A stretch of DNA of 55,731 nucleotides, the filler included, from Jimgerdemannia flammicorona (Eukaryota): the NCBI GenBank assembly GCA_003990765.1. It is 3 parts of 3 records of this genome, joined end to end, with 100 filler letters (N's around TTAATTAATTAA, not from the genome) between each part and the next. Parts side by side here need not be neighbours in the genome. Positions count along the whole stretch, not along the records: positions 18,621 to 37,127 come from RBNJ01002192.1; 2 more parts are not named here. One strand, given 5' to 3'. The position numbers and the translations under genes are program-made. A model generated the notes under the pieces. That model saw nothing but the letters and a program-made list of their open reading frames with translations. It was not told the origin of the DNA and made no database searches. This document shows positions 8,781 to 42,966 of this stretch, one piece after another (within the stretch, counting starts at the first letter, position 1; every line of letters starts with the position of its first letter).

Positions 8781-8879
8781 GTCATCAGAATATAGTACTT
8801 CAGAACTCAGTAGAGCAGGGGCCTATTAATTTACAGTATAATAACAGTATCAGAGAGGGAGACAATATTATTCAGTGAG

Positions 8880-15300: not shown

Positions 15301-18200
15301 CCCACAACCCTTTCTCAGCCAGTAGAGAGGAGTTGAGGTGCTAATGTCCGGGTCCATCTCCACTCCCCCCAAACTGCCCTTGTCCCAACAGTCCCCAGTG
15401 ATCAGACCATGGGCACCATTCCACCTCTAATACCTTCCAGACATTAGGCCCCCAGCATTCTGCCATCAGAATCCAGTCAATCCTTGTACCCAAGCCATTC
15501 ACCCAATGTATGTAGACCCTTGAGTTGCCCCATCATGTTCTACCCATATCCTCTAAGGAGCTCAGCCTCTCCACCTCCTCCCATGTATCCAGGCCTCCAC
15601 TTCTCCCTCCTGCACTCCTCCCACCATCAGTGCAGTCCAGATGCTGATCCTGAACCATACTAAAGTCCCCCCCAATCACATTGACCCCTTCTGCCAAGAG
15701 AACACCCTCCTCCAGCAGCCCCTCAATCCATGCAATCCTCTCACCCCTAACCACAGGGCAGTAGCAAGAGCCAACCTTCACCGACTCCCACCCTGGCCTC
15801 TGCCAATCTCCCCAGACCAAGCAGTCACCCCAGCTCCTGATTCCCTCCAAGTCACCTCTACCCTTCCTCACCAGAATCGCCACTTTTCCAAACCAAGCAG
15901 CAGCCCTGCCCCATTCTTTAGTCCACTTCACCTGATCATCCTTATCCTTATACCAAACATCCTGTAGTAAAAAGAGATCAGCCTCCAACCCCTTGAGTCA
16001 AGTAAAAATGTTCTTACACCATCCAGACCCCCTCAACCCATTCACATTCAAAGAGAAAATGTTAGTTGTACTGTTTATAAGGAATAATGTTAAAAGTGAT
16101 CCCATCCTCTACAAGTCCACATTCAGCTCCTCCTGCACCAAGTCCAATTCACATTCAGCAGCTAGTTCCCTTTCCCCAGCTTTCCATGCCTCCAACCCTC
16201 CCAGAAGTTCTACCATTGCCTCATCTTCCCTCTCCTCAAATTCCTCTCAATACTCCAGACAGACCTCCCTCCAGAGCTGCAAACCATGCCACTCAGCCCA
16301 GTAATATGTCACCTGCTCACCTGCAGCCACCACCAGCTCTGCCTTCCTTACCTCATCAACCTCATATTCCTTCTCCTTTACGAGGATCACAAAAATCTCC
16401 CCCCTCAGTGCCTCCACCACTCCCTCACCATACAGGATCCACTCCCAGTGCTCCTCAGGCATAACCCATAGGTCCACTTCTCCCAATGCATCAGCCATGA
16501 GGTTATCCATCACCTTGCTCATCCACAGCAAGTTTTCTACCTCCTTCCCTCCTAGAGTCCCTGGCCGGCCTGCATCCAACATCATAGTGTCAGCACCTAC
16601 ACTGGCAGCCTCATCCCACTCCTCCCCAGGGACATCCACCAGCTCATCCTCGCCAGCTGCCACCACCTGGCCCCCTTTTGCCACATCAGGGACCCCAAAA
16701 CGCACTTGCTGGGCCCCCTTCATCAGCACATCCTCTGATGTCCTTCTCTTTACAGCTGGGCCCCTCCTGATCAGTGGGGGGGGGGTGGAGTCCAATTCCG
16801 GCTCCCAGACCTCAAAGGTGCCATCGGCAAAAGGGTCCTTGCTCAGCACCTTCCCATCTTCTTCCTTGCCTTCCTCCACCTCCCCTACCCCTTTACTAGC
16901 CCAAACACTGGCACCTCAGCCCCAACTGCCTTCTTCTTCACCTCAACTGTCATACTTGCCAGTAGCTCCCTCTGCCTCCTGCGCCCCTGTGCCCACTCCC
17001 ACTGCCCCTTGTCCATGTGGATACACTTCCCCTCCACAACCTCCAGATGCATCAACTCCTCATACATCTTCCAGGCCCTTGCCCTCCTCGCCACAGCTCC
17101 ACTCATCTCCTCCAGCACCTCCAACAAGTCCTCCTCCTTCTCCTCACTCCCCTTCACCCTTGATACCTTACAGATGAATACCCCCCACATCAGCACAGAA
17201 GGCTAGTCACTTGCCTTCTCTGTTGCCTCCTTTCCCACCAGCCGAATCCTGACATCAATGTTACCCATCCTGATCGTTGTCCCCTCTCACACCTGAAAGC
17301 TGATATCCACTATGTCACCATACTCAATCATCACCTCCTCCACCCTCTTCCTAGTCTCCTCCTTAGTCACTATGGACACTCTCTTCACCAGAAGCTGTAC
17401 CACCCTGGGGTCCCATCTCAAGCACCACACCATGGGGACCACCACCTCCCCAACCACAACTCCAGTCTTCAGTACCTCATTCAGTGGACCAGCCTCCTCA
17501 AAGCCCACCTTGACTCCCTCCAGACCCTTCAAGAACTTCACTGAGGCTGCCCCAGCCACCTGCTTCGAAACAAGCCACAGAACTATCCCTGCCATCACTG
17601 TGAAGCCCTGGAAGCACAAGGTTACCACAAACTCCGAGATCGACTTCTTGAGCAATGGGGTCACTGCCAGCCCTGTTACACCATCTGCCAGGTCCCCCTT
17701 CTGCATCGGGAACCTATGCCCCACCTGGCTATCAGCCATTACATCTCCTTTTTTTTCCTGATTCCCTGTCACACTCCCATCAACAGTTATACCACCAGCT
17801 GCAGCACCTTCAGCCCCTACACCTGCACTCCCAGCTAGAGTACCTCCCCCCCTCCCAAGGCTCATCTTGCCCTTCCCCTCAGCAGCACCAGCCCTATTAC
17901 CAGCTGGCCACCCACTCCCCTTAACCTTGTCTGCAAAGCTTGGGGGACTAGATCTTCCCCCATTACCACTAGACACCAGTCCTCCTCCAGAGCTTTCTCC
18001 ATTTCTTGGCCCTCCAAAGGCCCCTATCTCCAGGCCATAACCCCTTCCCACCTACTGCCAGTTGAAGGCCCTAGATCCACTCAACCTAGTATGCTCACCT
18101 ATATGGTCATTGCTCTCCATGTTGCTAGTCACCTTTCACCAAAAACGTTGTCGAAAGTATTGTCTGAGTCTTGTGTCACCTGAATGTTACCAGTGAAAGG
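12338..18200 (-). mobile_element. Full-length LINE copy A3
   Basis: Poly(T) from 12338. ORF2 start decayed to ATA at 16078. ORF1 ATG 18120 (MESNDHIG...) to stop 16109. 5' end cctttcactggtaacattcag. TSD tgcca(a)tgtcccac at 12324-12337 and 18201-18213. Confidence 0.93.
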
Positions 18201-18388: not shown

Positions 18389-18520
18389 TAGTGCTCCTAA
18401 CGAGTCAATTTAATCCGGATTGGATTCGGATTGATTCGGATTGAATCCCATCCGGATCAACTCGGATGGGATTCGAATCCCATCCGGATGGATTCGAATC
18501 GGATTCGAATCGGATTCGAA
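18389..18520. mobile_element. hAT-type element end, truncated by contig end
   Basis: TAGTGCTCCTAACGAGTCAA terminus, near-identical to 43221, followed by CpG-rich GGATTCGAATC subterminal repeats. Confidence 0.8.
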
Positions 18521-18620
18521 NNNNNNNNNNNNNNNNNNNNNNNNNNNNNNNNNNNNNNNNNNNNTTAATTAATTAANNNNNNNNNNNNNNNNNNNNNNNN
18601 NNNNNNNNNNNNNNNNNNNN
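18521..18620. other. Artificial contig linker N44-TTAATTAATTAA-N44
   Basis: Exactly 100 bp with a six-frame stop 12-mer at 18565-18576. Confidence 0.95.
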
Positions 18621-18893: not shown

Positions 18894-21800
18894 CCTTTCT
18901 CTTGTACAATTCACATTACATCAACTTCAAACAACAGTTTACGACATAACTTGGAGAAAAAGTATTATAAAAATATCATCAAGCAAGAGTTCTGATAGGT
19001 ATGCTGGATTGGATAGACCTGGGGCTTTCAGCTGACAGAATGTAGGGAGGGGTTATGGCCTGGAGATGGGGGCCTTTGGAGGGTCGAAAGGTAGTGAGAA
19101 CTCTAGAGGTAGACCAGTGTCTGGTAGCAATGGGGGAAGGCCTGGTCCCCTAAGCTTTGTGGATAAGGTGAAGGGGAGTGAGTGGCCAGCTAGATCTAGA
19201 ATAGGTGCTGCTGAAGGGAAAGATAAGGTGAGCCTAGGGAGGGGGAGAGGTACTTAGGTGAAAGATGCAAGTATAGGTGCTAGAGATGCTGTGGCTGGGG
19301 GTGGGACAGCTGATAGAAGTGTGATAGAGAATTGGGAGAAAAAAAGAGATGTGATGGCTGATGACAGAGTAGAGCAGGGGTTTCCAATGTGGAAGGGAGA
19401 CCTGGCTGATGGTATAATGAGGCTGGTGGTGGCATTATTACTCAGGAAATCAAACTTGGAGTTTGCAGTGACACTGTGCTTCTGAGGCTTAGCAGTGATG
19501 GTGAGAATGGTCTTGGAGCTTATCTCAAAGCAAGTGGCTGGGGCTATCTCAGTAAAGTTCCTAAAGGGTCTGGAGGGGATTAAGGTGGGCTTTAAGGAGG
19601 TAGGTCTACTGGAGGAAGCTCTGAAGACTAGAGTGGCTATTGGGGAGGTGGTGGTCTCCATAGTGTACTGCCTGAGGTGGGACCCCAGGGTAGTGCAGCT
19701 GCTAGTGAAGGGGGTGCCTACAGTGATGAGAGAGGAAACTAGAAGGAGGGTGGAGGAGGTGATGGCAGAGTATAGCGATATGGTAGATATTGGTTTCCAG
19801 GTATAAGAGGAGACCTCTATCAGGATAGGTAATGTGGATGTGAGGATTCAACTGGCTGGAAGGAAAGCTACAGAGAAGATGAGTGACTGGCCCTCAGTAT
19901 TGATGTGGGGGGTCTTTGTCTGTAAGGTGTCTAGGGTGAGAGGGAGTAGCAAGGAGGAAGAGAACTTATTGGAGACTCTGGAGAAGTTAAGTGGTACTGT
20001 TGAGAGGAGGGTGAAGGCCTGGAAATTGTATGAGGAGTTAACACATCTGGAGATTGTAGATGGGAAGTGTATTTGCACAGACAAGGGGCAGTAGGAGCAG
20101 GCCCAGGGGCATATAAGGCAGAGAGAGCTATTGGCAAGTATGAAAGGAGGGGTAAAGAAGAAGGTAGATAGAGCTAAGGAGTCTGGAAGTATCAAAGCCA
20201 GTATCTGGGCTAGTAAATAAGGAGAAGAGGTAAAGGCAAACAAGAAAGTAGCTAGGAAGGTGCCAAGCAAGGACCTCTATGCAGATGGTACATTCAAAGT
20301 CTGAGAGCAGGATGTGGATACCACCCCCCCCCCTCTTATTAGGAGGGGCCCAGTGGTGAAGAGAGGGGCAGTGGAGGATGTGCTGATAAGGAGGGCCCAG
20401 TAAGTATACTTTGGGGTCTCCAATATAGCAAAAGGGGGCCAGGTGGTGGCAGTTGGCAAGGATGAGCTGGTGAATATCTCAGAGGAGGAGTGGGATGAGA
20501 CTGCCAGTATAGGAGCTGATACCACAATATTAGATACAGGGTGGTCAGAGACTCCAGGAGGGAAGGAGGTGAGGAACTTGCTGTGGATGAGTAAGGTGAT
20601 AGATAACCTCATGGCTGAGGAGTTGGGAGAAGTGGACCTGCATATGATGCCTGAAGAGTATTGGGTGTAGATTCTGTGTAGAGATGGAGTAATGGAGACA
20701 CTGAAGGTGGAGATTCTTGTAATTTTCATGGAGGAGGAGGAATACAAGGTTGATAAGGTAAGAAGGCAGAGCTGGCAGTTGTTGCTGGTGAGCAGACTGC
20801 CTACTGTTGGGTGGAGCATCATAGTTTGCAGCTCTGGCAGGAGGCCTGTCTGGAGTATTGTAAGGACTTTGAGAAGAAAGAGGATGGGGTGATAGCTGAA
20901 CTTCTGGGAGGGTTGGTGGTACAGGAAGCTGAAGAGAAGGGACTAGCTGCAGAACATGACTTGGACTTGGTACAGGAGGAGTTGAATGTGGATTTGTAGA
21001 GGAGGAGATTGATAAATAACATTATTTCTTATAAACAGTACAACTAATATTTTCTCTCTGAATGTGAATGAGTTATGGGGATCTGAGCAGCATAAAAATA
21101 TTTTTGCTTGGTTCAAAGGATTGGAAGCTGATCTCTTTTTACTATAGGATATATGGTGTGAGGATGAGGATGATTGGATAGAGTGGACTAGGAAATGGAG
21201 TGGAACTACTGCTTGGTTTAGCAAAGTGGCAATTTTGGTGAAGAAGGATAGAGAAGACTTGGGGGAAATCAGGAGCTAGGGTAATTGATTGGTCTGGGGA
21301 GAATGGCATTGGCCAGAGTGGGAATCAGTGAGGGTTGGCTCCTACTACTGTCCTGCAGTTAGGGGCAAGAAGATTGCATGGATTAAGGAGCTACTGGAGG
21401 AGGGAATTCTCTTGGAGGAAGGAGTTGATGTTCTTGGTAGTGATTTCAATATGGTTCAGGATCTGTGACAAGATAGAACTGATGGAGAGAGGAATGCAGG
21501 TAGGAGAAGTGGTGGTCTAGATGCATAAGAGGAGGTAGAGAATCTTAGCTCCTTAGGGAATAGGGGCAGAACTTGGTGGGGCAATGCAAGGGTCTACACA
21601 CATTGAGTAAATGGCTTAGATATGAGAATTGACTGGATTCTGATGGCAGACTGTTAGGGTGCTGATGTTTGGAAGACTTTAGAGGTAGAGTAGTGCTCAT
21701 GGTCAGATCACTGAAGACTGTTAGGGCAGAGACAGTTTGGGGGGAGTGGAGATGGACCTGGACATTGGTACCTTAACTCCTCTCTGCTGGCTGAGAAGGG

Positions 21801-23859
21801 GTTGTAGGACTTATGGATGGAGGATATTCAGGTGAAGGTTCCTATCTAGAGGTATGAGAGTTTATCTATAGGTGTCCATTGGATGAGGTTAAAAGAGGCT
21901 ATAAGGGTCTATTGGGGAGGAGCTGGTAGAGAGGCTGGGAGGTGAAGGAGAAAGCACATATAGTGTGCTTCAAATAGGCTGATGAGATTGCAGATGGAAT
22001 GGGCTGATTTGCTTACTTCTGATGAGGTGGTGGATTGGAGGTTAGAGTGGGCAAAATTGGAGATAGTGGAACTGCAATAGGTATTGAGAGAGGAGAAAGA
22101 GGCTCATATGCAAGGAATGGCTGCCAGGCTAAGATGGCAGGAGCTTGAGGAGAGAAAGCAGCCTACTAGGTACTTGTCTAGGCTCCTCAAAGCTAGGAGA
22201 GTGTGACATAGATGGAAAGGGGTCTTGGATGCCAAGGGGGATATGGTGCATGGCATGCAACTGATCTTGGGGGTTTTGAAGGAGAGATGGCAGGGTCTGT
22301 AGAGTGAGAAAGAAGGGGGTGCTAATGAGGAGGCAATTAGAGATACACTGGAGGAGTAGAAGCCACTGTGGGTGGAGGGACTAGGAGACTTGATCTTACT
22401 GATCCAAGAGGAGGAGATCTAGAGTGTCCTTGTGGTAACTAAGCTTGAGACAGCACCAGGGGAGGATGAATTACCTTGGGACTTCTGGAAGAAGATGGTG
22501 AAGGTCTCTGGAGTATTAGAAGAGATGGCTGCCCTCTATGACCACATTCTTCTGAATGGTAAGTGGGTTGGAGAGCAGGACTTGGGGTTGGTGGTCTTAT
22601 TGTACAAATACAAGGGCAGGCAAGAGAACTGGAAGAACTGGTGACCAATCATGCTTTTAGATATGGACCAGAAGTTGGTAACTAAGGTGATTGTTGCAAG
22701 ACTATAGAAGGTTGCTCAACAGGTGCTGAGTGAGGAGCAGCAGGGCTTTGTAGGAGATAGACTTATCAGAGATGAGACTGCCTGGGTGTATAGCATTATT
22801 GAAGGGGTCTGGGCTTGTAGACTAGATGGTATACTGGTCTTTTTGGACCAGGAGAAGGCCTATGACTGTGTTCAGTAGGTATGGCTGGGTGAGGTATTGG
22901 TGTCCTGTCACAGTTTCAGACTTCTATATTGAATTTGTTGGAGGGTAGTAGGGCAGTACTGATGTATAATGGGCAGGGGTTTGGCTTTTCTCTTGGAGAG
23001 AGGAGTTTCTCAAGGAGACCCACTGTCTCCTATTCTCTATACCCTTTCACTAGAACCTTTGATAGATAGGATCCATTAGAAGATGACCAGGCTCTCTTTG
23101 TATAATGTAGTGTAGAAGGTGGGGGCCTTTGTGGATGATATAGTAGTTGGACTTGGATCAGTGGCAGATGTTAGGGCACTTAAGGAAACAGTGGAATGGT
23201 ATGAAGTATACTCTGGGGTGAAACTTAACTGGCATAAGTGTGAAATAATAGTTCTGGGGAATGGGCTAGTGGGAGGGGATATCTGGAACAATTGTCCCTA
23301 CAGAAGAGATGGTGCAGTATTTCAGTATCTTTTTTTCTGTTTATGGATCAGTCTTACTATAAGTTTGATGAGAGAGGAGGGTAGCCATTTGGGGGGAGGC
23401 TCTACATAGTTGGGGAGGTCATCACATCTCCCTGGTAGGGCAGGTGTCAATCCTGAATGCTTACTGATTTCCCAAGCTATAGTATGTGGCATATCACTTA
23501 GACTTTCTGGCCTGGGTAGTAAAGAGGCTAATGAAACTAGCTAGGGATTGGATTTGGACAGGAAGAAGGTCTCAGATCTGTTGGGATATCCTTATAGAGC
23601 TGATAACTAGAGGAGGCCTAGGCCTTATGAATTTCCCTAAGTGGCTATACTGTCTGCGAGCTTGGTGGTTGAAAAAGACTGTTGAAATACAGGGAGGAGA
23701 TTGGATACTACTGATACAGAAGGTGTGGGAGAAGAGATTCTCCCCCCAGAAGTCCTCAGGAGATTTGCTCTCTCTGGTGGATCTGAACGGAAGCTGATGG
23801 CTAAGGTATAAGGGCTTCTGGTAGGGGGTGATAGATGGAGCACACCAGATAGGCCTGCA
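18894..23859 (+). mobile_element. LINE copy B1, 5' end present, cut off late in ORF2 by a hAT-type end
   Basis: 5' cctttctc motif shared with the other full-length copies. ORF1 stop 20997-20999, ORF2 start decayed to ATA at 21031. EN and RT motifs with many stops. Confidence 0.9.
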
Positions 23860-25012: not shown

Positions 25013-26040
25013 TTATCTCAGTCCCTCAGATCAGGGCTCAGTTCTATTGGAAAGGAGAGTTCAAAGTTATCTGAGTTTAACTACATCTGGTATCTGATCA
25101 AATAGAGAAATTCAAGGGCAAGATATTCAGCATAAGCAGTACCAGCATCATTATCAAGGCTTGGGGGTTGACATTTGAATCAGAGCCAATTGTTCTTGAC
25201 CAAGGGGTCCATTGGCCAGCAGAAGTAACCAATGATAAAGAGAACTATATCATTATTAATGAATGTAGAGAGGTGGTTATGATAATGATAAGGAACCTCT
25301 ATGGTGATGAGCTTCACTGCCACATCAATGAGATTTACAAGGATTGTATCAAATACCAGATGGTAGGAAAGAGAGGGTGACACCGGTAACATTCAGGTGA
25401 CACAAGACTCAGGTAATACTTTCAACAACGTTTTTGGTGAAAGGCGACTAGCAACATAGAGAGCAATGACTATATAGGTATGTGTACTAGGTCGGGGGGA
25501 TCTAGGGCCTTCAACTGGCAGCAGGTGGGAAGGGGTTATGGCCTGGGGATGGGGGTCTTTTGTAAGAGGGTTGCTTTTTAGGGTAACTGTTATGTAGTTC
25601 TAGATAGAATTTCTGGAAGTTCTGGATATTCTGGAAGACTGTTTTCTTTATGGTCAAGATCAATTTCGTATGGAGTATGTCCTCTATACTTATTGATTTC
25701 AAGATTGGGTTAACGTCTCAACCAAAGTCCTTTTTCAGACTAGTTCTGGATGTTCAGGATTTTCCATATTTCAGAAACTTCAAGAAACTAAGACCAGCTT
25801 AGTTGAATCGGTATATCGCTGCAGACAATACCCAATTAGGAAATTTCGTGATGGGGTTAGGAGTGAGACCTAACAAGGAGTGGATTCACTTAAGGGTGGT
25901 TTGTGGGTTATTGAATAGGTTTATTTGCTATTCATGATATTGCTATACTAGGAGTAGTTGTGTGAAGGGATATTGTGGGGAAGTATTCAGGAATGTTCTT
26001 ATGTATTCGAGTCTGAGATTCTGAGGTCTGGGGGAGTGGG

Positions 26041-26174
26041 TATTTATACTAGTGAGGGGCTATCTGGACTATACTGAATATGGACGTAGCACTAAGTGCT
26101 TTGCTGAGTCGGAATGCAGTTATATAGTGCAAGTGTGATCTGATATATTAAGAGATCGTCTGACTGCTGAGTCA
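26041..26174 (-). promoter_or_regulatory. Putative main LTR promoter
   Basis: Minus-strand TATAAATA at 26048-26041, TGAGTCA at 26168-26174, minus-strand AATAAA at 25925-25920 as possible poly(A) signal. The TATA and TGAGTCA motifs are also in copy 2. Confidence 0.5.
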
Positions 26175-26237
26175 GTTCACAGTCATATCATATAAAGCTA
26201 ATCTAACTATACTATGACTGCTAGACTATTTATGGGT

Positions 26238-27335
26238 TTAGGCGCTGTCTGGGTAGTTCTCGATGACATCACTATCAATTGTATCATCTCTGATGAAGTA
26301 GTCATCCAGGAAAAGGGATTCGTGGATTACTTCTCCTTGTTTACTGAGGTAATAATACATTGGAACTTCATCTCCATCCCACAGGATAGCATCATCTGTC
26401 TCATAGGCTGGATAAGGTATTGGTGGACAAAGGATGGGTGTATTGTCTTCACTTTCATTGGATTCGCTGTCTGTATACCTACTATAGGTTATGACACTGT
26501 GAGTTGCAGGGTTATAGTATGCTGGCGGCTGTGGTTCATGTCGCTTATACTCTGGTAGTGGAGTGGTTGGTTCGATCTCAAGGGTTGTCTGGAGGTACAG
26601 GTTGTGTTCTCCGGTTTCTTCATTGTAGTTGAAGTAATTGGGGGTGAATGCAGGTTGGTATTTGTGCCAGTGATCATTGTCCCAATAAGTCTCGTATGCA
26701 GTTATGAACTATTGTAAGTTCATCAGCAAGGTTGGCAGAGTGATCAGGGTTGGCAGAGATCCTTGGCTAGAGGTCATGTCAGTGTCAGAGGGATCATTGT
26801 CTTCTGCTTCATCTTTATTGAAGTGGATTATATCATAGATGTCTTTCATGGCATATCCAACTTGGGGCATTTGCAGAATATGATCATTGGGGTGTGGGAA
26901 GGTTCTGTCTGTGGTTTCGACATACTCAAGGTACTTGTGGTTGAGTTCTTGTATCATATTGTCAATTTGGCCATAGGACAGAGTAGCAACCATTTCGCTA
27001 GTAGTAACTTGGAGGCAGGGAATAAAGGTACTGTACTTATAGAAGAGTTCTCGATGTTTGCGGGCGATGAGCTTCTGGTGTTGAGACATCTGGGTAATGT
27101 CTGTGTTGTGGTGGTGTTCAACCATATCTTCCAGGAGGTGGCTGATCTGGTAGTAGCTTGAGATTTGTCTGATTCAGTAGGTCTCACTAAACATGTTCAG
27201 GGCATTCCATCAGACTTCCATGAAGTAGAGGGGTGCCAGGCTATGGATATTCATGAGGGGCAGAGGGGGTGTGGCTTGGTTGACAATGGTATTCCAAATG
27301 TCAGTGTGGATGTAGGTATAGATCTCGGTAATCAT
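26238..27335 (-). pseudogene. LTR-embedded ORF of unknown function (365 codons if three stops are repaired)
   Basis: ATG 27335 in an A/C-rich leader (...cacacaaacATG). One frame MITEIYTYIHTDIWNTIVNQ...MVEHHHNTD...LLMNLQ*FITAYETYWDNDHWH...DVIENYPDSA, TAA 26240-26238. No frameshift; stops at codons 42, 54, 209. Confidence 0.75.
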
Positions 27336-30225
27336 GTTTGTGTGTTTGGAAGTTATAGTTGTTGTTTTGTTTTGGTTCTCTAATTTGACGCATTTTGGTG
27401 CTTGGTATATATGTATTTGATCCTAATTGATAAGATTCCATTTGTGTAGATCTTGTGTTCTGTGACTTTATATTGACTCAGCTTTGTGTACTGTGACTTT
27501 GGTTTGACTCAGCTTCGTGATCAAGCAGGTGATTTCCAGATTTGTTCAGAGGTCGTGTGTGATTTTAGTAGCTTGTTTGGAGGGTGATGTGTAATTTCGG
27601 TGGCTTGTTCGGAGGGTGACATGTAATTTTAATGGCTTGGAGGTTGTGCGCTTACACCTTTGGAGGACCGAAGAATGGAGAAGGCTCTGGAGGGGGACTG
27701 GTGTCTGGTGGCAATGTGGGAAGATCTGGTCTCCCAAGCTTCGCAGACAAGATTAAGGGGAGTGGGTGGCCAGCTAGTAATAGGGCTGGTGCTGCTGAGG
27801 GGAAGGGCAAGATGAGCCTTGAGAGGGGGGGCAGTGCTCCAGCTGGGAGTGCAGGTGTAGGGGCTGGCAGTGCTGTGGCTGGGGGTGTGACTATTGATAG
27901 GGCATGATGGGGAATCAGAAAAAAAAAGGAGATGTGATGGCTGATGGCCAGGTGGGGCAGGGGTTCTCGATGTGGAAGAGGGACCTGGCAGATGGTGTAA
28001 TGGGGCTAGTGGTGACCCCATTGCTCAAGAAGTCGATCTTGGAGTTTGCGGTGACCTTGTGCTTCTGAGGCTTAGTAGTGATGGCGAGGATGGTTCTGGG
28101 GCTTGTTTTGAAGCAGGTGGCTGGGGCAGCCTCAGTGAAGTTCTTGAAGGGTCTGGAGGGAGTCAAGGTGGGCTTTGAGAAGGCCAGTCTACTGAATGAG
28201 GCACTGAAGACTGGAGTTATGGTTGGGGAGGTAGTGGTCTCCATGGTGTGGTACTTGAGATGGGACCCCAGGGTGGTGCAGCTTCTGGTGAAGGGGGTGC
28301 CTATGGTGACTAAGGAGGAGACTAGGAAGAGGGTAGAGGAGGTGATAATTGAGTATGGTGATGTGGTGGACATTGGTTTTCAGGTGTGGGAGGAGATAAT
28401 GATCAGGACAGGTGACATTGATGTCAGGATTTGGCTGGCAGGAAAGGAGGCCACGGGGAAGGTGAGTGACTGGCCTTCTGTGCTGATGTGGGGGGCATTT
28501 GTCTGTAAGGTATTGAGGGTAAAGGGGAGTGAGGAGGAGGAGGAGGACTTGTTGGAGGTACTGGAGGAGATGAGTGGAGCTGTGGAGAGGAGGGCAAGGG
28601 TCTGGAAGATGTATGAGGAGTTGACACATCTGGAGGTTGTGGAGGGGAAGTATATCCACATGGACAAGGGGCAGTGGGAGTGGGTGTAGGGACACAGGAG
28701 GCAGAGGGAGCTACTGGCAAGTATGGCAGTTGAGGTGAAGAAGAAGGCAGTTGGGGCTGAGGTGTCTGGGGGTATTGAAGCCAGTGCCTGGGCTAGTAAA
28801 GGGGTAGGGGAGGTGGAGGTAGGCAAGGAAGGAGATGGGAAGGTGCTGAGCAAGGACCCTTTTGCCAATGGCACCTTCGAGGTCTGGGAGCCGGAATTGG
28901 ACTCCACCCTCCCCTCTCTGATCAAGAGGGGCCCAGCTGCAAAGAGAAGGGCATTAGAGGATGTGCTGATGAAGGGGGCCCAGCGAGTGTGTTTTGGGGT
29001 CCCTGATGTGGCAAAAAGGGGCCAGGTGGTGGCGGCTGGTAAGGATGAGCTGGTGGATGTCCCTGAGGAGGAGTGGGATGAGGCTGCCAGTATGGGTGCT
29101 GATATCACGATGTTGGATGTGGGATGGCCAGAGACTCCAGGAGGGAAGGAGGTAGAAAACTTGCTGTAGATGAGTAAGGTGATGGATAATCTCACAGCTG
29201 ATGCATTGGGAGAAGTGGACCTACAGATTATGCCTAAGGAGTACTGGGAGTGGATTCTGCATGGTGAGGGAGTAGTGGAGGTACTGAGGGGGGAGATTCT
29301 CATGATCCTCTTAAAGGAGGAGGGATATGAGGTCAATGAGGTGAGGAAGGCTGAGCTGGTGGTGGCTGCAGGTGAGCAGGCAATATACTGCTGGGCTGAG
29401 CAGCATGGTTTGCAGCTCTGGAGGGAGGCCTGTCTGGAGTATTGAGAGAAATTTGAGGAGAGGGAAGATGAGGCAATGGTAGAACTTCTGGGAGGGTTGG
29501 AGGCATAGAAAGCTGAGGAACAGGAGCTAGCTGCTGAATGTGAATTGGACTTAGTGCAGGAGGAGCTGAATGTGGACTTGTAGAGGATGGAATCACTTTT
29601 TAGCATTATTCCTTATGAACAGTACAACTAATATTTTCTTTTTGAATGTGAATGGGTTGAGGAGATCTGGATAGCATAAGAACATTTTTACTTGGCTCAA
29701 GGGATTAGAGGCTGATCTCTTTTTACTATAGGATGTTCAGTGTGAGGATGAGAATGATCAGGTAAAGTGGACTAAGGAATGGGGCAGGGCTACTACTTGA
29801 TTTGGAAAAGTGGTGATTCTGGTGAGGAAGAGTAGAGGTGACTTAAAGGGATCAGGAGCTGGGGTGACCACTTGGTCTAGGGAGATTGGCAGTGGCCAGG
29901 ATGGGAGTCAGTGAGGGTTGGCTCTTGCTACTGCCCTGTGGTTAGGGGTGAGAGAATTACATGGATTGAGGAGCTACTGGAGAAGGGTGTTCTCTTGGTG
30001 GAAGGGATCGATGTGATTGGGGGGAACTTTAATATGGTTTGGGATCAGTGTCTGGACCACACTGATGGTAGGAGGAGTGCAGGAGGGAGAAGTGGAGGCC
30101 TGGATGCTTGGGAGGAGGTGGAGAGGCTGAGCTCCTTAGGGGATATGAGTAGAATACGATGGGGCAACTCCAGGATCTACACACATTGGGTGAATGGCTT
30201 GGGTACAAGGATTGACTGGATTCTG

Positions 30226-30913
30226 TGGAGGCATGGTGGTGGCTTCCCCCCAAGTTCTGGGTGGTGTGGTGGCAGATGCTGCAGAGGAATGTCATGCTGA
30301 ATTTCTGCACCAGGCATCTGGTGGATGGTGGCTGTTTCGATTGTGAGGAGTATTACAATGTAGGGCAAGCTGGGGGTGTGGTGCAGATGTCGGAACATTG
30401 GCTAGGAGAGTGTGAGGTTTTGGGGGACTTTTGGGTAGAAATAGGGAATAGACTAGGTATAGAGCACAGGCCAGCGGGTGGAGGGGGTTGCTGGGAGGAC
30501 TTGCGAGCTCGGCTGGTGGGGGGGGTGGGGGATAGTTGGCTCACTGTTGGGTGGGTGTTAGCAGTTTGGGTAGGTTTGGCAGGGCATTGGCTTTTTGTGT
30601 TTGAGGAGGGGCGGCAGATGAGTGTGCAGGAGAAGGTTGCAAGGTGGGAGGAGTTGTTGGGGGATCTGTTGACTGGATGGTGGGTAGGTTGGGGTCCTTC
30701 CAGGGGGGTGGTGGTGGGGTTTGGTGGCAAGGATATATGATCAGAGTAGTGGGAGAGTTGGGGTTGTATTTGGGAAAGTGGCGTTTCATCGAGAAGATAT
30801 CAGGGGAGAGGGGGGCCCCCCCCTGAGGGGGATTGGATAGAGGGTGGGTTCACTGTACTATATAGGATAGATGAGGGTAATAAAGGGAGAGTCCAAGTAA
30901 CTATAAAAAAAAA
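30226..30913 (+). mobile_element. 5'-truncated LINE (688 bp) nested in the EN domain of B2
   Basis: ORF2 zinc-finger end, 3'UTR and poly(A). Perfect 17-bp TSD ggattgactggattctg at 30209-30225 and 30914-30930. Confidence 0.95.
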
Positions 30914-33900
30914 GGATTGACTGGATTCTGATAGCAGAATGCTGGGGGTCTGATGTCTGGAAGATATTGGAGGTGGAATGGTGCCCATGGTCTGATCACT
31001 GGGGACTGTTAGAACAGGGGCAGTTTGGGAGGAGTGGAGATGGATCTGGACATTGGCACCTCAACTCCTCTCTGCTGGCTGAGAAGGGGTTGTGGGATCT
31101 GTAGGTAGAGGACATTCAGATGAAAGTCTCTCACTGGAGGTATGAGGGTTTGTCAGTGGGTGTCCAGTGGATGAGATTGAAAGAGGCTGTAAGGGTCTAT
31201 TGGGGAGAGGCTGGGAGAGAAGCTGGGAGATAGAGGGGGAAGTGCATGAGGTGTGCTTCTAGTAGGCTGAGGAGATTACGAATGGATTGGGCAGGTTTGC
31301 TTATGTCTGATGGGGTGGAAGATTAGAGGTTAGCACAGATTAAATTGGAGATATTGGAACTACAACAGATGTTGAGAGAAGAGGAGGAGGTGCATATGCA
31401 AGGTATGGCTGCTAGGCTACAGTAGCAGGGGCTTGAGGAGGGTGAGCAGCCTACTAGATATTTATCCTGTCTGCTCAATGCTAGGAGGGTGAGACATTGG
31501 TAGAATGGGGTCCTTAATGCTGATGGGGACATGGTACATGGCATGCAACAAATCCTAGGGGTTTTGAAAGAGAGATGGCAGGGTTTGTGGAGTGAGGATG
31601 AAGGGGGTGCTGATGAGGTGGCTATTGAAGATGCATTAGGGGAATGGAGGCTGCTGCAAGTGGCTAGACTGGATGACTTGGCCTTGCCAGTGTGAGGTGA
31701 GGAGGTCCAGAGTATCCTTGTGGCAACTAAAACTGAAACAGTGCCAGGGGAGGATAGACTACCATGGGACTTCTGGAAGAAGATGGTTAAGGTCTCTGGC
31801 ATTCTGGGGGAGATGACTGCTCTCTGTGATCATATTCTTCAGAGCGGTGAGTGGGTTGGAGGGCAGGACCTTGGGCTGGTGGCTTTATTGTACAAAGACA
31901 AGGGGAGGAGAGAAGACTGGAAGAACTGGTGACCGATCATGCTTTTGGACATGGACAGGAAGATGGTAACTAAGGTGGTTGTCGCAAGGCTGCAGAAGGT
32001 TGCCCAACAGGTGCTGGGGGAGGAGCAGTGGGGCTTTGTTAGAGGCAGGCTTATTAGAGATAGGACTGCTTGGGTACATGGTATCATTGAAGGGGCCTGG
32101 GCTTGCAGCCTAGATGGAAGGCTGGTCTTTTTGGATTAGGAGAAGGCCTATGACTGGGTCTGGCAGGTTTGGCTGGGCAAGGTGTTGGATCATGTTGGTA
32201 TTCCTTCTAGATTTCGGGCTTCTATGGTGAATCTGCTCAAGGGCAGTCAGGTGGTGCTGATGTGTAATAGTCACCATGGTCAGGCGTTTACCTTGAGAAG
32301 AGGGATTCCTCAGGGGGATCCCTTGTCCCCTATTCTTTATGCTCTTTCATTGGAACCATTAATGGATAGGATTCGCCAGAAGGTAGTGGGGCTCTCTATC
32401 TATGGTATAGTGTAGAAGGTGGGGGCCTTTGCAGATGATATAGTGGTTGGCCTTGGGTCTGTGGTAGATGTTGAGGTACTTAAGGAGACAGTGAAATGGT
32501 ATGAGGTCCACTCTGGGGCAAAGCTCAACTGATATAAGTGTGAGACTATGGTGCTAGAGAATGGTCTGGTGGGTGGGAATGTCATTGGAACAATTGTTCC
32601 TACTGGGGAGGTGGTATGGTATCTGGGCATCTTCCTCTCTGTATATGGTTTTATCTTACCATGAGTGTGGTGGGAGAGCAGGGTGGCTATTTGGGGGGAG
32701 GCCCTTCAAGATTGGGGAGGCTGCCATATCTCTCTAGCAGGGCGGGTATCAATTCTAAATACATACTGGTTCCCCAAGCTGTGGTATGTGACATACCACC
32801 TAGACTTCCCAGCTTGGGTGGTGAAGAGGCTGACAAAGGTGGCTAGGGATTGGATTTGGGCAGAGAGGAGGTCCCAGGTCAGTTGGGATACTCTTGCGAC
32901 ACCGGTGGACAGGGGAGATCTTGGTCTTGTGGATTTCTCTAAGAGGTTACACTGCTTGTGAGTCTGGTGGCTGAAGAGAGTGGTGGAACTACAGGGAGGG
33001 GATTGGGTACTTCTGATGCAGAAGGTGTAGGAGATGAGAACCTCCCCCTGAGAGTCCTCAGGGGATCTACTCTCTTTAGTAGAGTTTAATGGAATTCAGC
33101 AGCTGCAATTTAAGGGCTTTTGGTGGGGAGTGGTTGATGGAGCACACTGAATTGGTCTGTGCTGACAAGGCAATGAGGGGGAGATGTTGTGGGGTCCTCA
33201 TATGTGGTGATGGGATAGACTGCTTCTGGGAGGTGCTCCACTTGTTACTTTTGATATTGGGAATAGAGTGGAGTATCAGCAGGGTCTTAGCTGGGACCTT
33301 TGGCTGAGCAGTTGGCAGGTAGTCAGGATCAGCGAGGAGTGGGACTGGACAGATATCTGGTCTTGGAGTACTGAGGTGTGGCAGTGGCTTCCCCCCAAGT
33401 TCTGGGTGGTGTGGTGGCAAATGCTGTAGAGGAATGTCATGTTGAATTTCTGTACTAGGCATCTGGTGGATGGTGGCTGTTTCAACTGTGAGGAGTGTTA
33501 CAATGTAGGGCAAGCTGGGGGTTTGGTGCAGGTACCAGAACATTGGCTGGGGGAGTGTGAGGTTTTGGGGGACTTTTGGGTTGAAATAGAGAATAGACTG
33601 GGTGTAGAGCGCAGACCAGCGGGTGAAGGGGATTACTGGGAGGACTTGAGATCTCAGCTGGTGAGGGGGGTGGGTGATAGTTGGTTTACTGTCAGGTGAG
33701 TGTTAGCAGTTTGGGTGGGTCTAGTGGGATATTGGCTATTTGTGTTTGAGGAGGGGTGGCAGATGAGCCTGCAGGAGAAGGTGGTAAGGTGGGAGGAGCT
33801 GTTGGGGGATCTGTTGACTGAATGGTGGATTGGTTGGAGTCCTTCAGGGGGGTGGAGGTATGGTTTGGTGGCAAGGATATGCAAACAAAGCAGTGGAAGG

Positions 33901-35219
33901 GTGGGAATTGTATTTGATAGAGTGGTGTTCCATTGAGAAGGGGTAGGGGGGAGGGGCCCCCCTAGGGGGATTGGATAGGGGGTGGGTTTATTATATTTAT
34001 ATAGGATAGATGGGTGTAATAAAGGACAAGTCCAAGTGACTATAAAAAAAAAGGAAAGAGAGGGTGAAAAAAGCAAGGAGGGGGGGTTTGGACAGAAATT
34101 GAGTATACTGCAATACTGGTAAAGGGTGGGTTCCAGAGTTCCAAAATCCCCCACACTTGTCTCCCTTTTTTTTTTACTCCTCTCTAGATAAATCACACTC
34201 TTTACTGACATACTCTTTTTGATACAATTCCAGGGATATACAAGATTCTGTACCCCTATCAGAACTTTAGAAGTGCCATCAAAGAGCAAACTATGTGTGA
34301 GTACAACATGGTCTGTGCAGTAATGATGGCTATGATCTGGGGTTCTTTGAGTAGATTGGTAGAGCATACAGCAGGCCAGCTTAGTAGTGATCTCAGTGCA
34401 GCTGTACATATATTCTTGGTGCAATTTAGCATACTGTATGAGGTGAGGAGCTCTGCTTTTTTGGGGTACTACAGCCCAGGGGGTTTCTGCCTCCCTGTAT
34501 GCAAAAAGGACTGACCAGTTGCTATTCATTTCAGCAGGTTTCCAAGCCAGGGCTCCTGGGGCTGGACCAAGGACAGGCATCCACCAGTATAGTCTGGCAG
34601 TATGAGGTCCTGGGCCAAGGATTCACCCAACTGTATGCTTACATCACATTAGGATATGTTGGGCACAACCTTTCTCTACCTATACACATAGACAACAATA
34701 TCACTCCAATAATGTTTTACATCCCAGAAAGGAAGGGCCCAACCTGGGAGAATAGTGGTGGAGTCTGGTATGACCTCACCTATGGTTTCAGAGTCCTGTT
34801 TGCAGCCCATATAGCCATCCTATTCCAACCATATGACCACCATGATACTGTTGCCTTTGAGGAGAGCTTGGACACAATAGTCATCATACTCACAACAGAT
34901 CAAGGCCTGAGACTGGCAGGTGGAGCAGTTTTTGTGAGAGTTAAGCAATTTTTTGTGAGAGTAAGACAATCTTTCATGAGGGTTAGGTAGCCATTTTATA
35001 CAGGTTGGGCAGTCTTATATGGGGGGGTTGGGCTGGGCACCTCTTCTGTAGCACTAGCTTAGCTGTTATATAGAGCCCTACCAGCCTCTCAGCCCTACTC
35101 TGTAGTACCACCAGTGTGGTACTGTGGCACAGGGCCAGGGTGCCCATAGGACCCGAACTGGCAACTTTGACTGCCGGAAATACCCTCTGATCACCAGAAG
35201 CACCCTCTGCCCTGGACTT

Positions 35220-35869: not shown

Positions 35870-36924
35870 AGCCCTATCAAGACTTCAGATACATATATGC
35901 CTGAATTGTCTCAACATTCAGTGTACACCTCTTTGAGGCAACGAGGTCTACCCCACCTAAGAACACCTGTTTGATGGGAGTGCTGGAGGCAGGAATCACT
36001 AAGTAGTCCCAAGCTATACTACATAGGCTGGAGAAGTCTGTTTGATATAGCTGCATGCTCTGGTGGGTAGAGCAGTGGTTAGATTAGTGGGTTAAATTGG
36101 CTCAATGCCTATCTGACAACCCACCTTCTACCAGTTGAGTACCTCCATGCCCTCCAGCAGGACCACATAGTCACTAGCAAAGTAAATGGTAAGTTTGTCT
36201 ATTGATGGCAGCTCTTCCACTGACAGCTCTCTCTTCCTCTTTCTGCTGAAGTAAATATGGAACAGAAGAAATCTCTTGGCATATTTGTCTGGACTTTAGC
36301 TGGAACCTTGTGGCAGCATATAGTTTTTCTGGTATACTTTGATTACAGCTTGCTTGGTTCTCTCAATAAAGTGCTACTCCCAGCCCTGATCTTTATGGTA
36401 TTGTAGCTTTAAGTGTAGATCCAACACTGTTTGAAGAATAGGAGAGTGAGTTTTTGCAGGGTTTCCTCTGTTTTGGAAGGGGCAATGGCCATATGCCAAT
36501 ATTGATATACCTATACTAATTGAGTATATGGTGATATCTGTTTGGGAGTAGTATTTTCTGAGCTTACTTAAAGTAACCTCTATGGTGTCTCTCTGATCTG
36601 GGCTTAACTATAAATCACTACAACCCTCCAGTCTGTCCTCGAGCTTATCCTCTAGTCAGTCAATCAGAAGGTTGTATACTGGTATTGCTGAGCTTATTGT
36701 CAGGGTCGTTTGTTTGACTATATCCTTCATACAATTGTCGAAACACTGGCAGTTATATGTAGTGAGGTGTTGCATTGTGCGAAGGCAGACAAAATGAGTA
36801 TAGAGCCAGAGCAACCACCACTTGCTTCCAAAACTCTGACAACATTTCTAAGTATGTCCCACTCACTTTCATCTAGAGCCTCAGTCCATATTTCCTTGTC
36901 AGCAGCCACTGTTGAATCTATTGG
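35870..36924 (-). pseudogene. hAT transposase C-terminal half with three introns
   Basis: Spliced reading: ...ESEWDILRNVVRVLE / CFDNCMKDIVKQTTLTISSAIPVYNLLID...KLRKYYSQTDITIYSISI / VLDLHLKLQY...EVLNW*K / LYQTDFSSLCSIAWDYLVIPASSTPIKQVF...ETIQAYMYLKS (dimerisation domain). Introns 36825-36746, 36510-36427, 36124-36051. Confidence 0.88.
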
Positions 36925-37127: not shown

Positions 37128-37227
37128 NNNNNNNNNNNNNNNNNNNNNNNNNNNNNNNNNNNNNNNNNNNNTTAATTAATTAANNNNNNNNNNNNNNNNN
37201 NNNNNNNNNNNNNNNNNNNNNNNNNNN
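37128..37227. other. Artificial contig linker N44-TTAATTAATTAA-N44
   Basis: 100 bp, 12-mer at 37172-37183. Confidence 0.95.
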
Positions 37228-40200
37228 TTGGACTGCCCTTTATTACTGAAGTCTATAGTGATAACAATATAATGTCACCCACCCTCTCAACCAATACCCC
37301 GGGGGCCCAACCCCCCTTCCTCAACCTCCCCCTGCCCAAGCACCACCTGACCACCCACTACCTGAACTCTTCCACCACTTTTCTGGGAGATACACTGCAC
37401 CAAACTCCTGTGGTACCCCCCACCCATACCCCAACCCCACCACCAGCTGTTTAAAATGTCCAACAGCAACTATTCCCACCATGCCACCTTTTCACCAACT
37501 CCAACCCGATGCCCATCCTCAAATACATGCACCCAATGCTCTGCCAACCCAACCCACATAGCCAAGACCCAGCCAAGGGTCAGCCATTTGTCCCCGACCC
37601 CACCCACCAATTGCTGGCGAAGCTCTCCCCATCTCCCCCCTCCCTTCCCTCCCCCAGCCCCCAACCCTAACCTGTCCCTTATACACCCCCAGAACTCCCC
37701 CAAAACCTCACACTCGCCAAGCCAATGTTCAGGCGTTTGTACAACCCCTCCCTCCTGACCAATATTGAAACAATCCTCACACTTGAACACTCCACCATCC
37801 ACCAAGTGACCAGACCGATAGTTCAGCATCATATTCCGCCACAGGATCCGCCACCATGCCAACCAGAACTTGGGGGGCAGCCACTGCCTCACCTGCTCGC
37901 TCCAATGCCAGAGCCCATTCCAATCCCACTCCTCCCTGATTCCAACCCTCTGCCAGGCTTCAGACCACAGGTCTCCACCTAGGCCTCGCAGGCACTCCAG
38001 ACCCTTGCCAAGCTGAAAGTCCTCCACCAGAGCACTACCCAATAGGAGCCTGTCCCATCTCCACATCTGTGGTCCCCAAACCTCTTCAGCCTCGTCACCC
38101 CGCCAATGAAGGCCGATTTTCTTAGCACCATCCACTGCTCCCCACCAAAAGCCTGTAAACCACATCCTCCGGCTCCCTTCCATAGCCACCATTGCAAGCA
38201 GGTCGCCGGAGCTACCACATGGGGAGTATCGAACCTCCCACAGCCTCTGCATGAGTGGCACCCACTCCCGACCTCTAAGCTCACTCACCCTCCTTAGCCA
38301 CCAGGCTCTCAGACATAAAAGCCGCTTAGTAAAGTCCACTAAGCCCAGTCCACCACTCTCCAAGGGCAGTGTGAGCACCTCCCAACCAACCTGACTCCAT
38401 CACCCTCCCCAAATCCATGACCTCGCCATCTTCAGCAACCCTTTAATCACCCATGGTGGAAAATCCAAATGATATCCAATATACCACAGCTTCAGCATCT
38501 AGTACACATTCAACACCATCATCCTTCCGGTAAGAGACATATGCCGGCCTCCCCATCGCATCAAGACATCGCCCCACTCCAACAGTTTATGGTCCCATCA
38601 TGCCCAGGGAAGAAGAGATCCAAACACCAAGAAGTAGATCCCCAAGTAGTGCACTAGTTCACTAGCTAGAACCACCGTTCCAATAACATCGCCACCGACA
38701 ATTCCAGCGCCCAGTACCAGCGTCTCATATTTGTGCCAGTTCAGTTTGGCACCAGAACCCCGCTCATACCATTCCACCATCCTCTGCAACTCGCCAACAT
38801 CCTCCAAGAAACCCAGTCCGACCACCATATCATCAGCAAAGGCCCCCACCTTCCAGTTCACCCCTAGAATGTCCAAACCCCCAATCTTATGTCGAATCCT
38901 GTCCAGTAGTGGCTCCAGGGAAAGAGCATACAATATGGGTGACAAGGGGTCCCCTTGTGGCACCCTACGGCCCAGGGGGAAGGTCACCCCCCAGTGGCCA
39001 TTGATGACCAATGCTGCCTGACTGTCCTCCAAAAGGCTGATCAATGAACCTCAGAACCCCGGGGGGATACCAATCCACTTCAGCACTCCCTCCAGCCATA
39101 TTCTCCGCACTCTATCATAAGCCTTCTCCTGGTCCAGAAATACTAATCTGCCATCCACCCCGGTAGCCCGGGCACCTTCAATTACTCCATGAACCCAGGC
39201 CGTCCCATCTCGAATCAACCGACCACTGACAAACCCACATTGCTCCAAACCAAGCACCTGCTATACTATCCCTTGCAACTGCAATACCAAGATCTTCGTC
39301 ACCAGTTTGCGGTCCATGTCCAGAAGCATGATCAGCTGCCAATTCTTCCAATCCTCCCTCCTGCCCTTGTTCTTATATAGCAAGGAGACCAGCCCCAAGT
39401 GCTGTCCCCCAATCCAGGCACCAGACTGAAGAACTTCATCACACATAGCCATCATTTCCTTCAGTACCTCATGCACCCCTGTCATCTTCTGCCAAAAATC
39501 CCAGGGGAGTCCATCCTCTCCCGGGGCTGTCCCTTTACTTGTAGAGGCCACTACTTTGCAAATCTCCTCACTGCTCACTAGGTCCCCCAACGCCACAAGT
39601 CCCATGGCAGGGTCCGGGTGCCAATCCCCCAGCTGCCTCTCAATGTCCAAAGCATCCAGGCCTCCTTTGTCCTCACTCCAAAGGTTCCCCCACTGGGATC
39701 GCAATAGGCTCAAAATTGCCGAAGTCCCTACCACCAGCTTGCCATTCTTGTCCAAAACTCCCTCCCACCGCTGCCTCGTTCGTCATGCTTGTAACAACCG
39801 TGACAAGAACCTGGTAGGTCTCTCCCCTTCCTCACGCCCCTGCCATCACAAGCGGGCCACCATCCCCTGCAGCTGCTCCTCTTCCTCCCTCTGTAGCACT
39901 CCTTTGAGCTCCCCCACCTCCTGCCGGATTCTCACAATATGCCAATCAGTCTCGGCCCTATCCTCCAGCACACCCACCCATCTCTCCATGAGCACCGCCA
40001 AACGCTGCGAGGCCCACATCACCCATTGCCTTTGCTGAGCACTCTTTCCTTTCCCCACCTCCCTCCAATACCTCTGAGCCTTTATCTTCAACCTTCTCCA
40101 GCGGTCCCCAATTGCCAGTCTCTGATCCCACCACCTGCCGATATCTCCAACCACCTCTGTTTCCCAACCCTCCTACAACGCCCTATCCTCCAGCAAGGAT

Positions 40201-42245: not shown

Positions 42246-42966
42246 ACTATACTAATAAAGCTTTAGACTTCCTGTACAGTACCATTGAAGATAAATAGGC
42301 TCAGACTTTTTATTGGTCTGGCTTGTTCAACTAAGATAGTAATAGTTACTACCATTATAGCTATCTGGACTATGAGGTCTAGAATCTGTTAGTTTGCTAT
42401 ATTATTTACTAAAGATAGTTGGACTACTAGTAGTGAGTTACTGATATAACTTAAGGTACTAGTACAGAATATAATGGTGTTCTTTAAGTCTGTATAAGTT
42501 GCTGGAGTAATAGTTATAGATCTAGAGTAAGAGTTTGATTAATAGTTATCTGCTGCTATATAGGTATATTTTGTTCTAATGGAGATATAACTTCTTCAGT
42601 AGTATATCTGAGATCAAATTCACTAAGATACTCTTCCTCTTCCTGGCTTTGGTCTCTATGTAGTTGAGTTTGCTTAGTATTGAAGTAGATAGAATTAGTT
42701 ATATATTAGATTTCAGATAGACTTAATTCAAAATCTGATTCTGGTTCAGTATTGATCTCAGTTTCAGATAGAGTAGTAGCTGGGCCTACTTCTGATTCAA
42801 AGTCAGGTTATTGATAAAAGGTTTCTCTTGCTTCTTCTTTAAGAATATGATAGGTCTTATAATTCTAGAAGTAGTAGTATAAGGTAGTCTTGGTTCTTAT
42901 ATGGTAAAAGTCAGTAGAGTTGAGTCACTTAGTTAGAGGCTTGGGCTTCATAAAGAATTAAGGCTA
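42246..42966 (-). pseudogene. Decayed LTR-retrotransposon internal region, gag-like start
   Basis: Joins 49442-49849 once LINE C2 is removed at its TSD. Minus translation has an acidic low-complexity stretch, then ...IKSLSLFIFNGTVQEV*SFISI, resembling the Gag P-x-F-x-G...FI motif. Weak. Confidence 0.45.

Follow-up and report, generated by a model that had tools for sequence, protein, structure and literature searches.

A probable former protein gene inside the long terminal repeat of a retrotransposon family from Jimgerdemannia flammicorona

Structure of the LTR unit

We analysed a stretch of 55,731 nucleotides (nt), filler included, from the genome of Jimgerdemannia flammicorona (GenBank assembly GCA_003990765.1), hereafter called the window. 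On its minus strand, at 26238-27335, lies a frame of 365 codons enclosed in a 2.1-kb unit that has the features of a long terminal repeat (LTR) of a retrotransposon. The unit (copy 1) spans 25561-27656 (2,096 nt) and, read in minus-strand sense, begins with TGTAAG and ends with CTTACA, so that its termini form a 6-nt inverted repeat with TG...CA ends. It is inserted within a long interspersed nuclear element (LINE), where it is preceded on the plus strand by TCTTT (25556-25560) and followed by CCTTT (27657-27661), flanks whose length falls within the 4-6 bp sought for a target duplication. Two paralogous LINEs, B and C, both carry a single, uninterrupted CCTTT at the homologous place, indicating that the site of copy 1 was formerly empty. 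We therefore read the two flanks as a 5-bp target-site duplication, the left copy of which underwent one later C>T transition. Furthermore, a contig of run X2 links position 25560 directly to 27677, with the unit absent. A solo LTR with TG...CA ends and a 5-bp target-site duplication had been proposed from this DNA alone, in what we call the sequence-only reading, and the empty sites in two of two paralogous LINEs bear this out.

A second copy of the unit (copy 2) is found at 49850-51876, also on the minus strand, on a separate contig 24 kb further along the stretch. It is 2,027 nt long, more decayed and 82% identical to copy 1. Its termini, TATAAG...CTTACA, are one transition away from TG...CA, and it has no matching 5-nt flanks. 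The end of this LTR is followed by ACT and then, 3 nt past the end, by TAGTAGCAGTGG (49835-49846, minus strand), a decayed sequence that starts with TGG and resembles a primer-binding site. In run X2, an independent copy of the unit has TGGTAGCAGCAG at the corresponding flank. The position of both sequences and their TGG start are those of a primer-binding site, and TAGTAGCAGTGG presumably corresponds to the 3' end of initiator tRNA-Met. The opposite boundary is seen in contigs of run X4 rather than in the window itself: on the minus strand of one contig, 12 purines and a T, as in a polypurine tract, are directly followed by the TGTAAGCG of the LTR, and two more X4 contigs start similarly, with an agreement of 0.72.

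The contig pieces of four runs that fit the LTR stretch number 3,230, 428, 58 and 379. These contigs are short (about 150-450 nt), each piece thus covering only part of the unit, and at 25561 and 27656 their depth drops steeply, so that these two positions bound a high-copy repeat. No RNA run was among the 12 runs listed for the sequence. Since its termini, its target duplication with empty sites and the primer-binding-site and polypurine-tract contexts of other copies all concur, the 2.1-kb unit appears to be the genuine LTR of a high-copy LTR retrotransposon family. Copy 1, as judged from its termini, target duplication, paralogue comparison and contig depth, would be a solo LTR, and copy 2, since a primer-binding-site-like sequence follows it, a 5' LTR.

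The 365-codon frame and its decay

In both LTR copies the frame runs from ATG to TAA over 1,098 nt on the minus strand, from 27335 to 26238 in copy 1 and from 51637 to 50540 in copy 2. It occupies LTR positions 322-1419 of 2,096 and is thus wholly internal to the LTR and in its sense orientation. The flanking LTR parts measure 321 and 239 nt upstream, and 677 and 690 nt downstream, in copies 1 and 2 respectively, the lengths given earlier for the two LTRs and now reproduced by the copy alignment.

The frame is interrupted in both copies. Copy 1 has three internal stops, at codons 42 (27212-27210), 54 (27176-27174) and 209 (26711-26709), whereas copy 2 has ten, at codons 14, 20, 42, 43, 95, 109, 209, 218, 265 and 333. 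The sequence-only reading had described a frameshift-free frame with one stop, at codon 54. The freedom from frameshifts holds, with no indel between the copies over the 1,098 nt, but the single stop does not. All these stops are of a kind produced by transitions in arginine, glutamine and tryptophan codons, and each of the ten in copy 2 is one or two transitions away from the codon of copy 1. At codon 54 itself, copy 1 reads TGA and copy 2 CAA, for which an ancestral CGA had been postulated; an arginine at this place in a database homologue (P0002, see below) agrees with that. As for the two stops common to both copies, codon 42 was formerly CGA and codon 209 CAG.

The pattern of decay is that of intense transition mutation. 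Across the window, the ratio of observed to expected CpG is 0.15; it is 0.37 for copy 1, which retains 30 CpG, and 0.05 for copy 2, which retains 3. Transitions at CpA and TpG are frequent as well: taking C or G as ancestral, 71 C/T differences precede an A and 51 G/A differences follow a T. Both window copies would thus be old insertions whose frame was later destroyed by transitions, strongest at CpG and common also at CpA/TpG, which turned arginine, glutamine and tryptophan codons into stops. As they stand, both appear to be pseudogenes.

Evidence for past coding

A global alignment of the two LTR copies has no indel in the 1,098-nt frame and 11 in the flanks (998 nt in copy 1), 6 of them in the 321 nt upstream and 5 in the 677 nt downstream, one at the very end. 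Among the indel places recorded from the four runs, none of the 12 listed out of 15 falls in the frame; these places are clustered and partly repeat the indels between copies 1 and 2, so that they are not independent of them.

The substitutions also carry a coding signature. Differences between the copies at codon positions 1, 2 and 3 number 75, 28 and 91, and the ratio of nonsynonymous to synonymous divergence (dN/dS, Nei-Gojobori) is 0.23 in this frame, the other five giving values of 0.39-1.87. Since mutation here consists almost entirely of transitions at C and G (177 of the 194 differences in the frame), the comparison was made against a null in which the 194 substitutions were redistributed among sites of like base and context in 5,000 simulations. 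Under this null, 64.4±5.2 synonymous differences are expected; 85 are observed, a count reached in 1 of the 5,000 simulations. Indel avoidance and a dN/dS below 1 had both been named beforehand as marks of a coding past, and both are present between the two window copies, the synonymous excess surviving the context-matched null.

Finally, the base composition of the strand predicts 19.2 stops per 365 codons, and 3 are seen in copy 1 (Poisson P ~6e-6); in the two remaining sense frames, stops number 13 and 36. The in-register plus-strand frame over 26238-27335 contains 3 stops in copy 1 and 12 in copy 2, with a dN/dS of 0.39, and no database protein matching it was found.

Homologues and predicted product

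A word-indexed search of 5.8 billion proteins returned two homologues of the minus-strand frame. P0001 (E = 8e-99), the only relative of similar length, is an open frame of 247 amino acids (aa) on an ENA contig of 998 nt; it matches residues 115-364 with 63% identity and 80% similarity, shows only two in-frame gaps of 2 residues, has a glutamine at stop 209 and matches the C-terminus. A shorter relative, P0002 (E = 1e-59), consists of 128 aa on a JGI contig of 1,180 nt and covers residues 1-128 from the same starting methionine, with 80% identity to copy 1. At all eight positions where the window copies show histidine, tyrosine, glutamine, cysteine or a stop, codons 42 and 54 included, P0002 has arginine, a pattern that fits the decay of CGN codons in the window copies. 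Since both proteins are open, an open version of the whole frame exists or existed, and to judge from P0001 even a relative as distant as 63% identity has stayed open. JGI metagenome contigs gave no relatives either by protein patterns or by a 25-nt LTR word, and viral contigs gave none.

The product resembles no transposon protein. Pfam returned no family for the copy 1 product, P0001 or P0002, whether E was limited to 1 or to 10, and none of the three matched a capsid, nucleocapsid, protease, reverse transcriptase (RT), RNase H, integrase or envelope family, in line with the earlier remark that no gag, pol or env motif could be recognised in the frame. A profile search of the PDB gave a best E of 0.39 only; this match, 27 residues of a kinetochore protein, was taken as chance. 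Structure models were too poor for fold comparison: the ESM Atlas model of P0001 has a predicted local distance difference test score (pLDDT) of 0.39, and no usable Atlas neighbours or feature matches; the AlphaFold2 model of the whole protein has a pLDDT of 31. When modelled alone, residues 1-128 are all helices (pLDDT 53, predicted template modelling score 0.42). A Foldseek search with this N-terminal model gave no PDB match at E up to 0.001, and the designed helical repeats that it returned were judged meaningless.

The C-terminal part, as seen in P0001, has an isoelectric point of 4.05 and contains 10.5% aspartate, 9.7% proline and 9.3% tyrosine; towards the C-terminal end, windows of P0001 reach a net charge of -7 with 3-6 aromatic residues. 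Neither sequence nor composition suggests a hydrophobic leader or a membrane segment. The predicted product is soluble and acidic, helical in its N-terminal half and rich in tyrosine, proline, aspartate and glutamate in its C-terminal half. We take this mix of acidic and bulky hydrophobic residues in the tail to be reminiscent of activation domains.

Regulatory layout of the LTR

The frame lies between two modules with promoter-like elements, all on the minus strand. At the 5' end of the LTR (27557-27656) there are about three tandem units of about 33 nt, whose number varies: copy 2 is 57 nt shorter, and a contig of run X4 skips 63 nt within them. Two GCTGAGTCAA motifs follow at 27474-27511 (TGAGTCA at 27511-27505 and 27480-27474), which we take to be AP-1/Gcn4-like, and then a TATATA (27406-27411), 70 nt before the ATG and conserved in copy 2, which is a candidate promoter of the frame. 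The ATG at 27335 has an A at -3, presumably a Kozak-like context. No ATG conserved in both copies was found between the upstream TATA (27411-27406) and this start, and the nearest in-frame upstream stop lies 29 codons before the ATG in copy 1 and 13 in copy 2.

Downstream, 3' of the frame, a pair of GACTCAGCA motifs (26102-26174, at 26173-26165 and 26110-26102) is well conserved between the copies. It is followed by TATAAA (26043-26048), identical in copy 2 and a candidate promoter of the genomic RNA, and by AATAAA (25920-25925), kept in copy 2 and a candidate polyadenylation signal. This downstream part is the best conserved of the LTR, with 0.141 differences per site.

Three other explanations of the layout were discarded. 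The two modules are not a duplicated promoter, being unalike (local score of 21 against a shuffle mean of 21.8), and their comparison revealed none of the terminal direct repeats of a terminal-repeat retrotransposon in miniature (TRIM) or large retrotransposon derivative within the unit. An RNA gene within the LTR was rejected, as the whole window yielded no Rfam match and no tRNA gene.

Sequence context

Past the putative primer-binding site of copy 2, the stretch 49442-49834 (minus strand) represents the start, or leader, of the internal region of the element. It ends where a LINE ends in poly(A), at 49441, and its single open reading frame (ORF) of at least 70 aa has no Pfam family. An imperfect 32-nt repeat (42955-42986 and 49444-49476) flanks this LINE together with a foldback insert and may have arisen as a long target duplication when the LINE integrated. 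If so, the internal region of the LTR element would resume at 42260-42986; a stop-tolerant frame scan of 42260-42986 found no family.

More broadly, the window is a nest of repeats. In a self-comparison, an element of 5.5-6 kb recurred in at least seven copies that are 65-91% alike, at 631-6183, 12340-18195, 19016-23845, 27657-34052, 37319-42246, ~42987-49441 and 51886-55729. Their plus-sense frames carry RVT_1 (E = 4e-25 to 6e-17) and one copy ends in a poly(A) run (49405-49441), features that mark them as non-LTR elements, i.e. LINEs. The closest relatives of their RT are metagenome fragments (47-74% identity), named ones reaching at most 29% (a Mucor, plants), and the Atlas neighbours of one RT frame are a mixture of Chordata, giant viruses and diatoms. 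The sense strand of the LINEs contains 32-38% G and 12-15% C, with a ratio of observed to expected CpG of 0.01-0.27. This asymmetry explains the strong GC skew of the window and accounts for chance frames as long as 410 aa on the antisense strand, which is poor in G. Most LINE pairs are 65-77% identical; the inverted pair 37319-40840 and 52209-55729 reaches 91% over 3.5 kb, and the pair 12360-18020 and 27657-34050 reaches 89-90%.

The foldback element, about 570 nt long (43231-43800, part of it also at 18454-18511), has inserted close to the 5' end of a LINE. Over its central 300 nt it matches its own reverse at 78%, and words of the ATTCGAAT type recur at its ends. Between LINE copies, an AT-rich stretch contains two tandem-repeat arrays with units of about 80-190 nt (8045-8780 and 8878-9495). 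On the minus strand at ~35880-36047, the hAT C-terminal dimerisation domain is matched weakly (E = 0.01; 16.1 bits, below the cut-off of 21.4 bits), which may mark the remnant of a hAT DNA transposon. Two identical linkers, 18521-18620 and 37128-37227, each made of TTAATTAATTAA with 44 N on either side, show that the window is three contigs joined artificially, and adjacency across the linkers is meaningless.

Discussion

The absence of indels, the synonymous excess, the rarity of stops and the two open homologues argue that the frame is probably a real coding gene, formerly under selection, inside a real LTR. In this interpretation, the gene would have been kept under purifying selection in the family while the family was active.

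Several observations weigh against it. The synonymous excess is moderate in size, and the 8 stop gains counted in copy 2 are no departure from the null expectation of 11.3±2.5, as would follow from a decay that largely postdates insertion. At the nucleotide level the frame is conserved no better than its flanks, its 0.177 differences per site lying between the 0.141 of the downstream and the 0.199 of the upstream part. The homologues are only two, a full HMMER pass over 1.84 billion representatives returning P0001 and P0002 again and no others; moreover, they were compared at the protein level and may lie outside LTRs. The window holds just two copies of the unit, no third and no full-length element: the internal region after copy 2 gives way after about 400 nt to the LINE poly(A) end, the contig stops soon after, and outside the LINEs neither 37 ORFs of at least 70 aa nor 6 stop-tolerant frames yielded a gag, protease, RT, RNase H or integrase belonging to an LTR element, the sole RT domains of the window being those of the poly(A) LINEs. 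No function is supported by any fold or family in Pfam, PDB or Foldseek, and, with two TATA modules present, the gene may lie in either the U3 or the R region of the LTR. Lastly, since the stops at codons 42 and 209 are common to both copies, the common ancestor of the two may already have carried them, the gene then being broken early and hence dispensable for transposition.

In the strongest alternative, the gene would be a passenger: the LTR of one lineage would have taken up a host gene, or a piece of one, that was of no use to the element, its coding signature being inherited or the trace of a weak and transient constraint. The product is unlike any transposon protein, the two shared stops suggest that LTRs with a broken frame may still have been copied, the divergence of the frame is not below that of the flanks, and the host lineage is so poorly sampled that databases could lack a cellular parent of the gene. 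However, the two shared stops lie in the two most mutable contexts of this DNA, CGA and CAG, which makes independent hits plausible, and no cellular homologue was found among the 1.84 billion representatives. The synonymous excess arose between two LTR copies, i.e. while the gene was in the LTR, the 1,098 nt of the frame have no indel against 11 in the flanks, and P0001, at just 63% identity, is still open to a matching C-terminus. We consider a passenger unlikely.

A second alternative accepts the gene but places it in R. The upstream TATA (27411-27406) would be the sole promoter and the frame the first cistron, a long leader ORF at both ends of the RNA. Tandem repeats, two TGAGTCA and a TATA in the upstream module are what is usual in U3 regions, and the A at -3 of the ATG at 27335, with no conserved ATG between TATA and start, would suit such a cistron. 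On the other hand, R would then measure about 1.5 kb, far above the usual lengths of R, and it is the downstream module, with its two motifs, TATAAA and AATAAA, that is better conserved and whose elements are spaced as they usually are where a promoter and a short R precede a polyadenylation signal. This placement is therefore improbable.

That the frame is a chance opening on a G-poor strand, or that the true gene is the in-register plus-strand frame, is hardly credible and, as far as sequence can decide, refuted by P0001 and P0002: chance frames do reach 410 aa on G-poor strands antisense to LINEs and the plus-strand frame of copy 1 also has 3 stops only, but two independent database proteins match the minus-strand frame (E = 8e-99 and 1e-59), composition predicts 19.2 stops where 3 are seen, dN/dS is lowest in the sense frame (0.23 versus 0.39 antisense), and the plus-strand product is a string rich in cysteine, tryptophan, isoleucine and valine in pieces of 114, 132 and 72 aa.

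Returning to a formerly selected LTR gene, the second TATA (TATAAA) would drive the genomic RNA, in which case the gene would sit in U3, as does the sag gene of mouse mammary tumour virus (MMTV). The upstream TATA could yield a gene mRNA of about 1.5 kb from either LTR or from solo LTRs, and this mRNA would end at the LTR's own polyadenylation signal. As to the product, our best guess, a tentative one suggested by the activation-domain-like look of its acidic, aromatic tail, is a trans-acting regulator of the element; the transactivator or silencing antagonist offered as examples in the sequence-only reading are likewise guesses. Taken further, the LTR might be a self-sufficient cassette of enhancer repeats, TATA, ORF and polyadenylation signal, by which every LTR, solo ones included, expresses an acidic trans-acting regulator; this remains doubtful. 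Such a regulator would raise transcription of the family or blunt a methylation-based silencing by the host. If this were true, dead solo LTRs would keep working for living copies, and the family would offer a retrotransposon counterpart, far from vertebrates, of the LTR-borne accessory genes of retroviruses. The sequence-only reading went beyond that and let the solo LTR itself spread as a cassette. This part is not supported, a solo LTR being a recombination remnant and both window copies apparent pseudogenes.

Among known systems, MMTV sag, a superantigen gene in the U3 of the viral LTR, appears to be the closest analogue in layout. In both cases, a complete sense protein gene other than gag, pol or env lies within the LTR, is doubled with it and is retained in solo LTRs. 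The present gene shows no family likeness to sag (no Pfam family) and no evident transmembrane or signal segment, and it belongs to a retrotransposon family of a soil eukaryote, not to a vertebrate retrovirus; moreover, sag lies in U3, whereas the position of our gene there is one that we infer. Neither Sag nor Nef homology was detected (no Pfam family; best PDB E = 0.39). The lentiviral nef and foamy-virus bel/bet genes overlap the U3 of the 3' LTR and are likewise accessory, regulatory-type genes that use the LTR as coding sequence, but they start in the internal region and overlap the LTR edge, whereas the present gene, with which they share no homology, lies wholly within the LTR. In Cassandra TRIM elements, both LTRs carry an embedded 5S rRNA-derived gene read by polymerase III, and the LTR described here resembles them in enclosing a cellular-type gene unit with its own promoter; the Cassandra gene is an RNA gene, whereas here a protein gene of 365 codons is found in a window with no Rfam match.

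Additional ORFs of LTR retrotransposons form a further point of comparison. According to the available text of a review (Vicient and Casacuberta 2020, PMC7264820), these include the env-like ORFs of Athila and Bagy2 and those of Grande, RIRE2, Retand and Boty, and they are located in the internal region, either ahead of gag or, more often, in the interval from pol to the 3' LTR. Like the LTR gene, they are conserved extra ORFs of obscure function and origin, present in most copies of a family and lacking relatives outside the element; the present ORF differs in lying within the LTR, and in a solo LTR at that, and not in the internal region. Of the phrases for a location in the LTR that were looked for, the available text of the review contains none (PMC7264820). 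An ORF within the LTR is present twice per element and survives the formation of solo LTRs. In the open-access literature, we found no retrotransposon described whose LTR encloses a protein ORF, the sole phrase match being an MMTV paper (PMC9412291), while passages of PMC3726574 and PMC6875170 proved to be off the subject; an earlier description of such a layout may exist beyond open-access text. By comparison of sequences, the gene appears to be an accessory protein gene wholly inside a retrotransposon LTR and not homologous to known LTR-borne genes.

LTRs are normally regarded as purely regulatory, and protein genes within them are textbook knowledge for a few vertebrate retroviruses only. 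Unlike an internal gene, a gene within the LTR is doubled in each element, and every solo LTR retains it together with its promoter and terminator; repeat masking also conceals it from gene annotation. Should intact copies be expressed, the present family would provide a direct test of whether non-retroviral retrotransposons evolve trans-acting regulators or counter-defence factors, and would show whether solo LTRs are more than inert scars.

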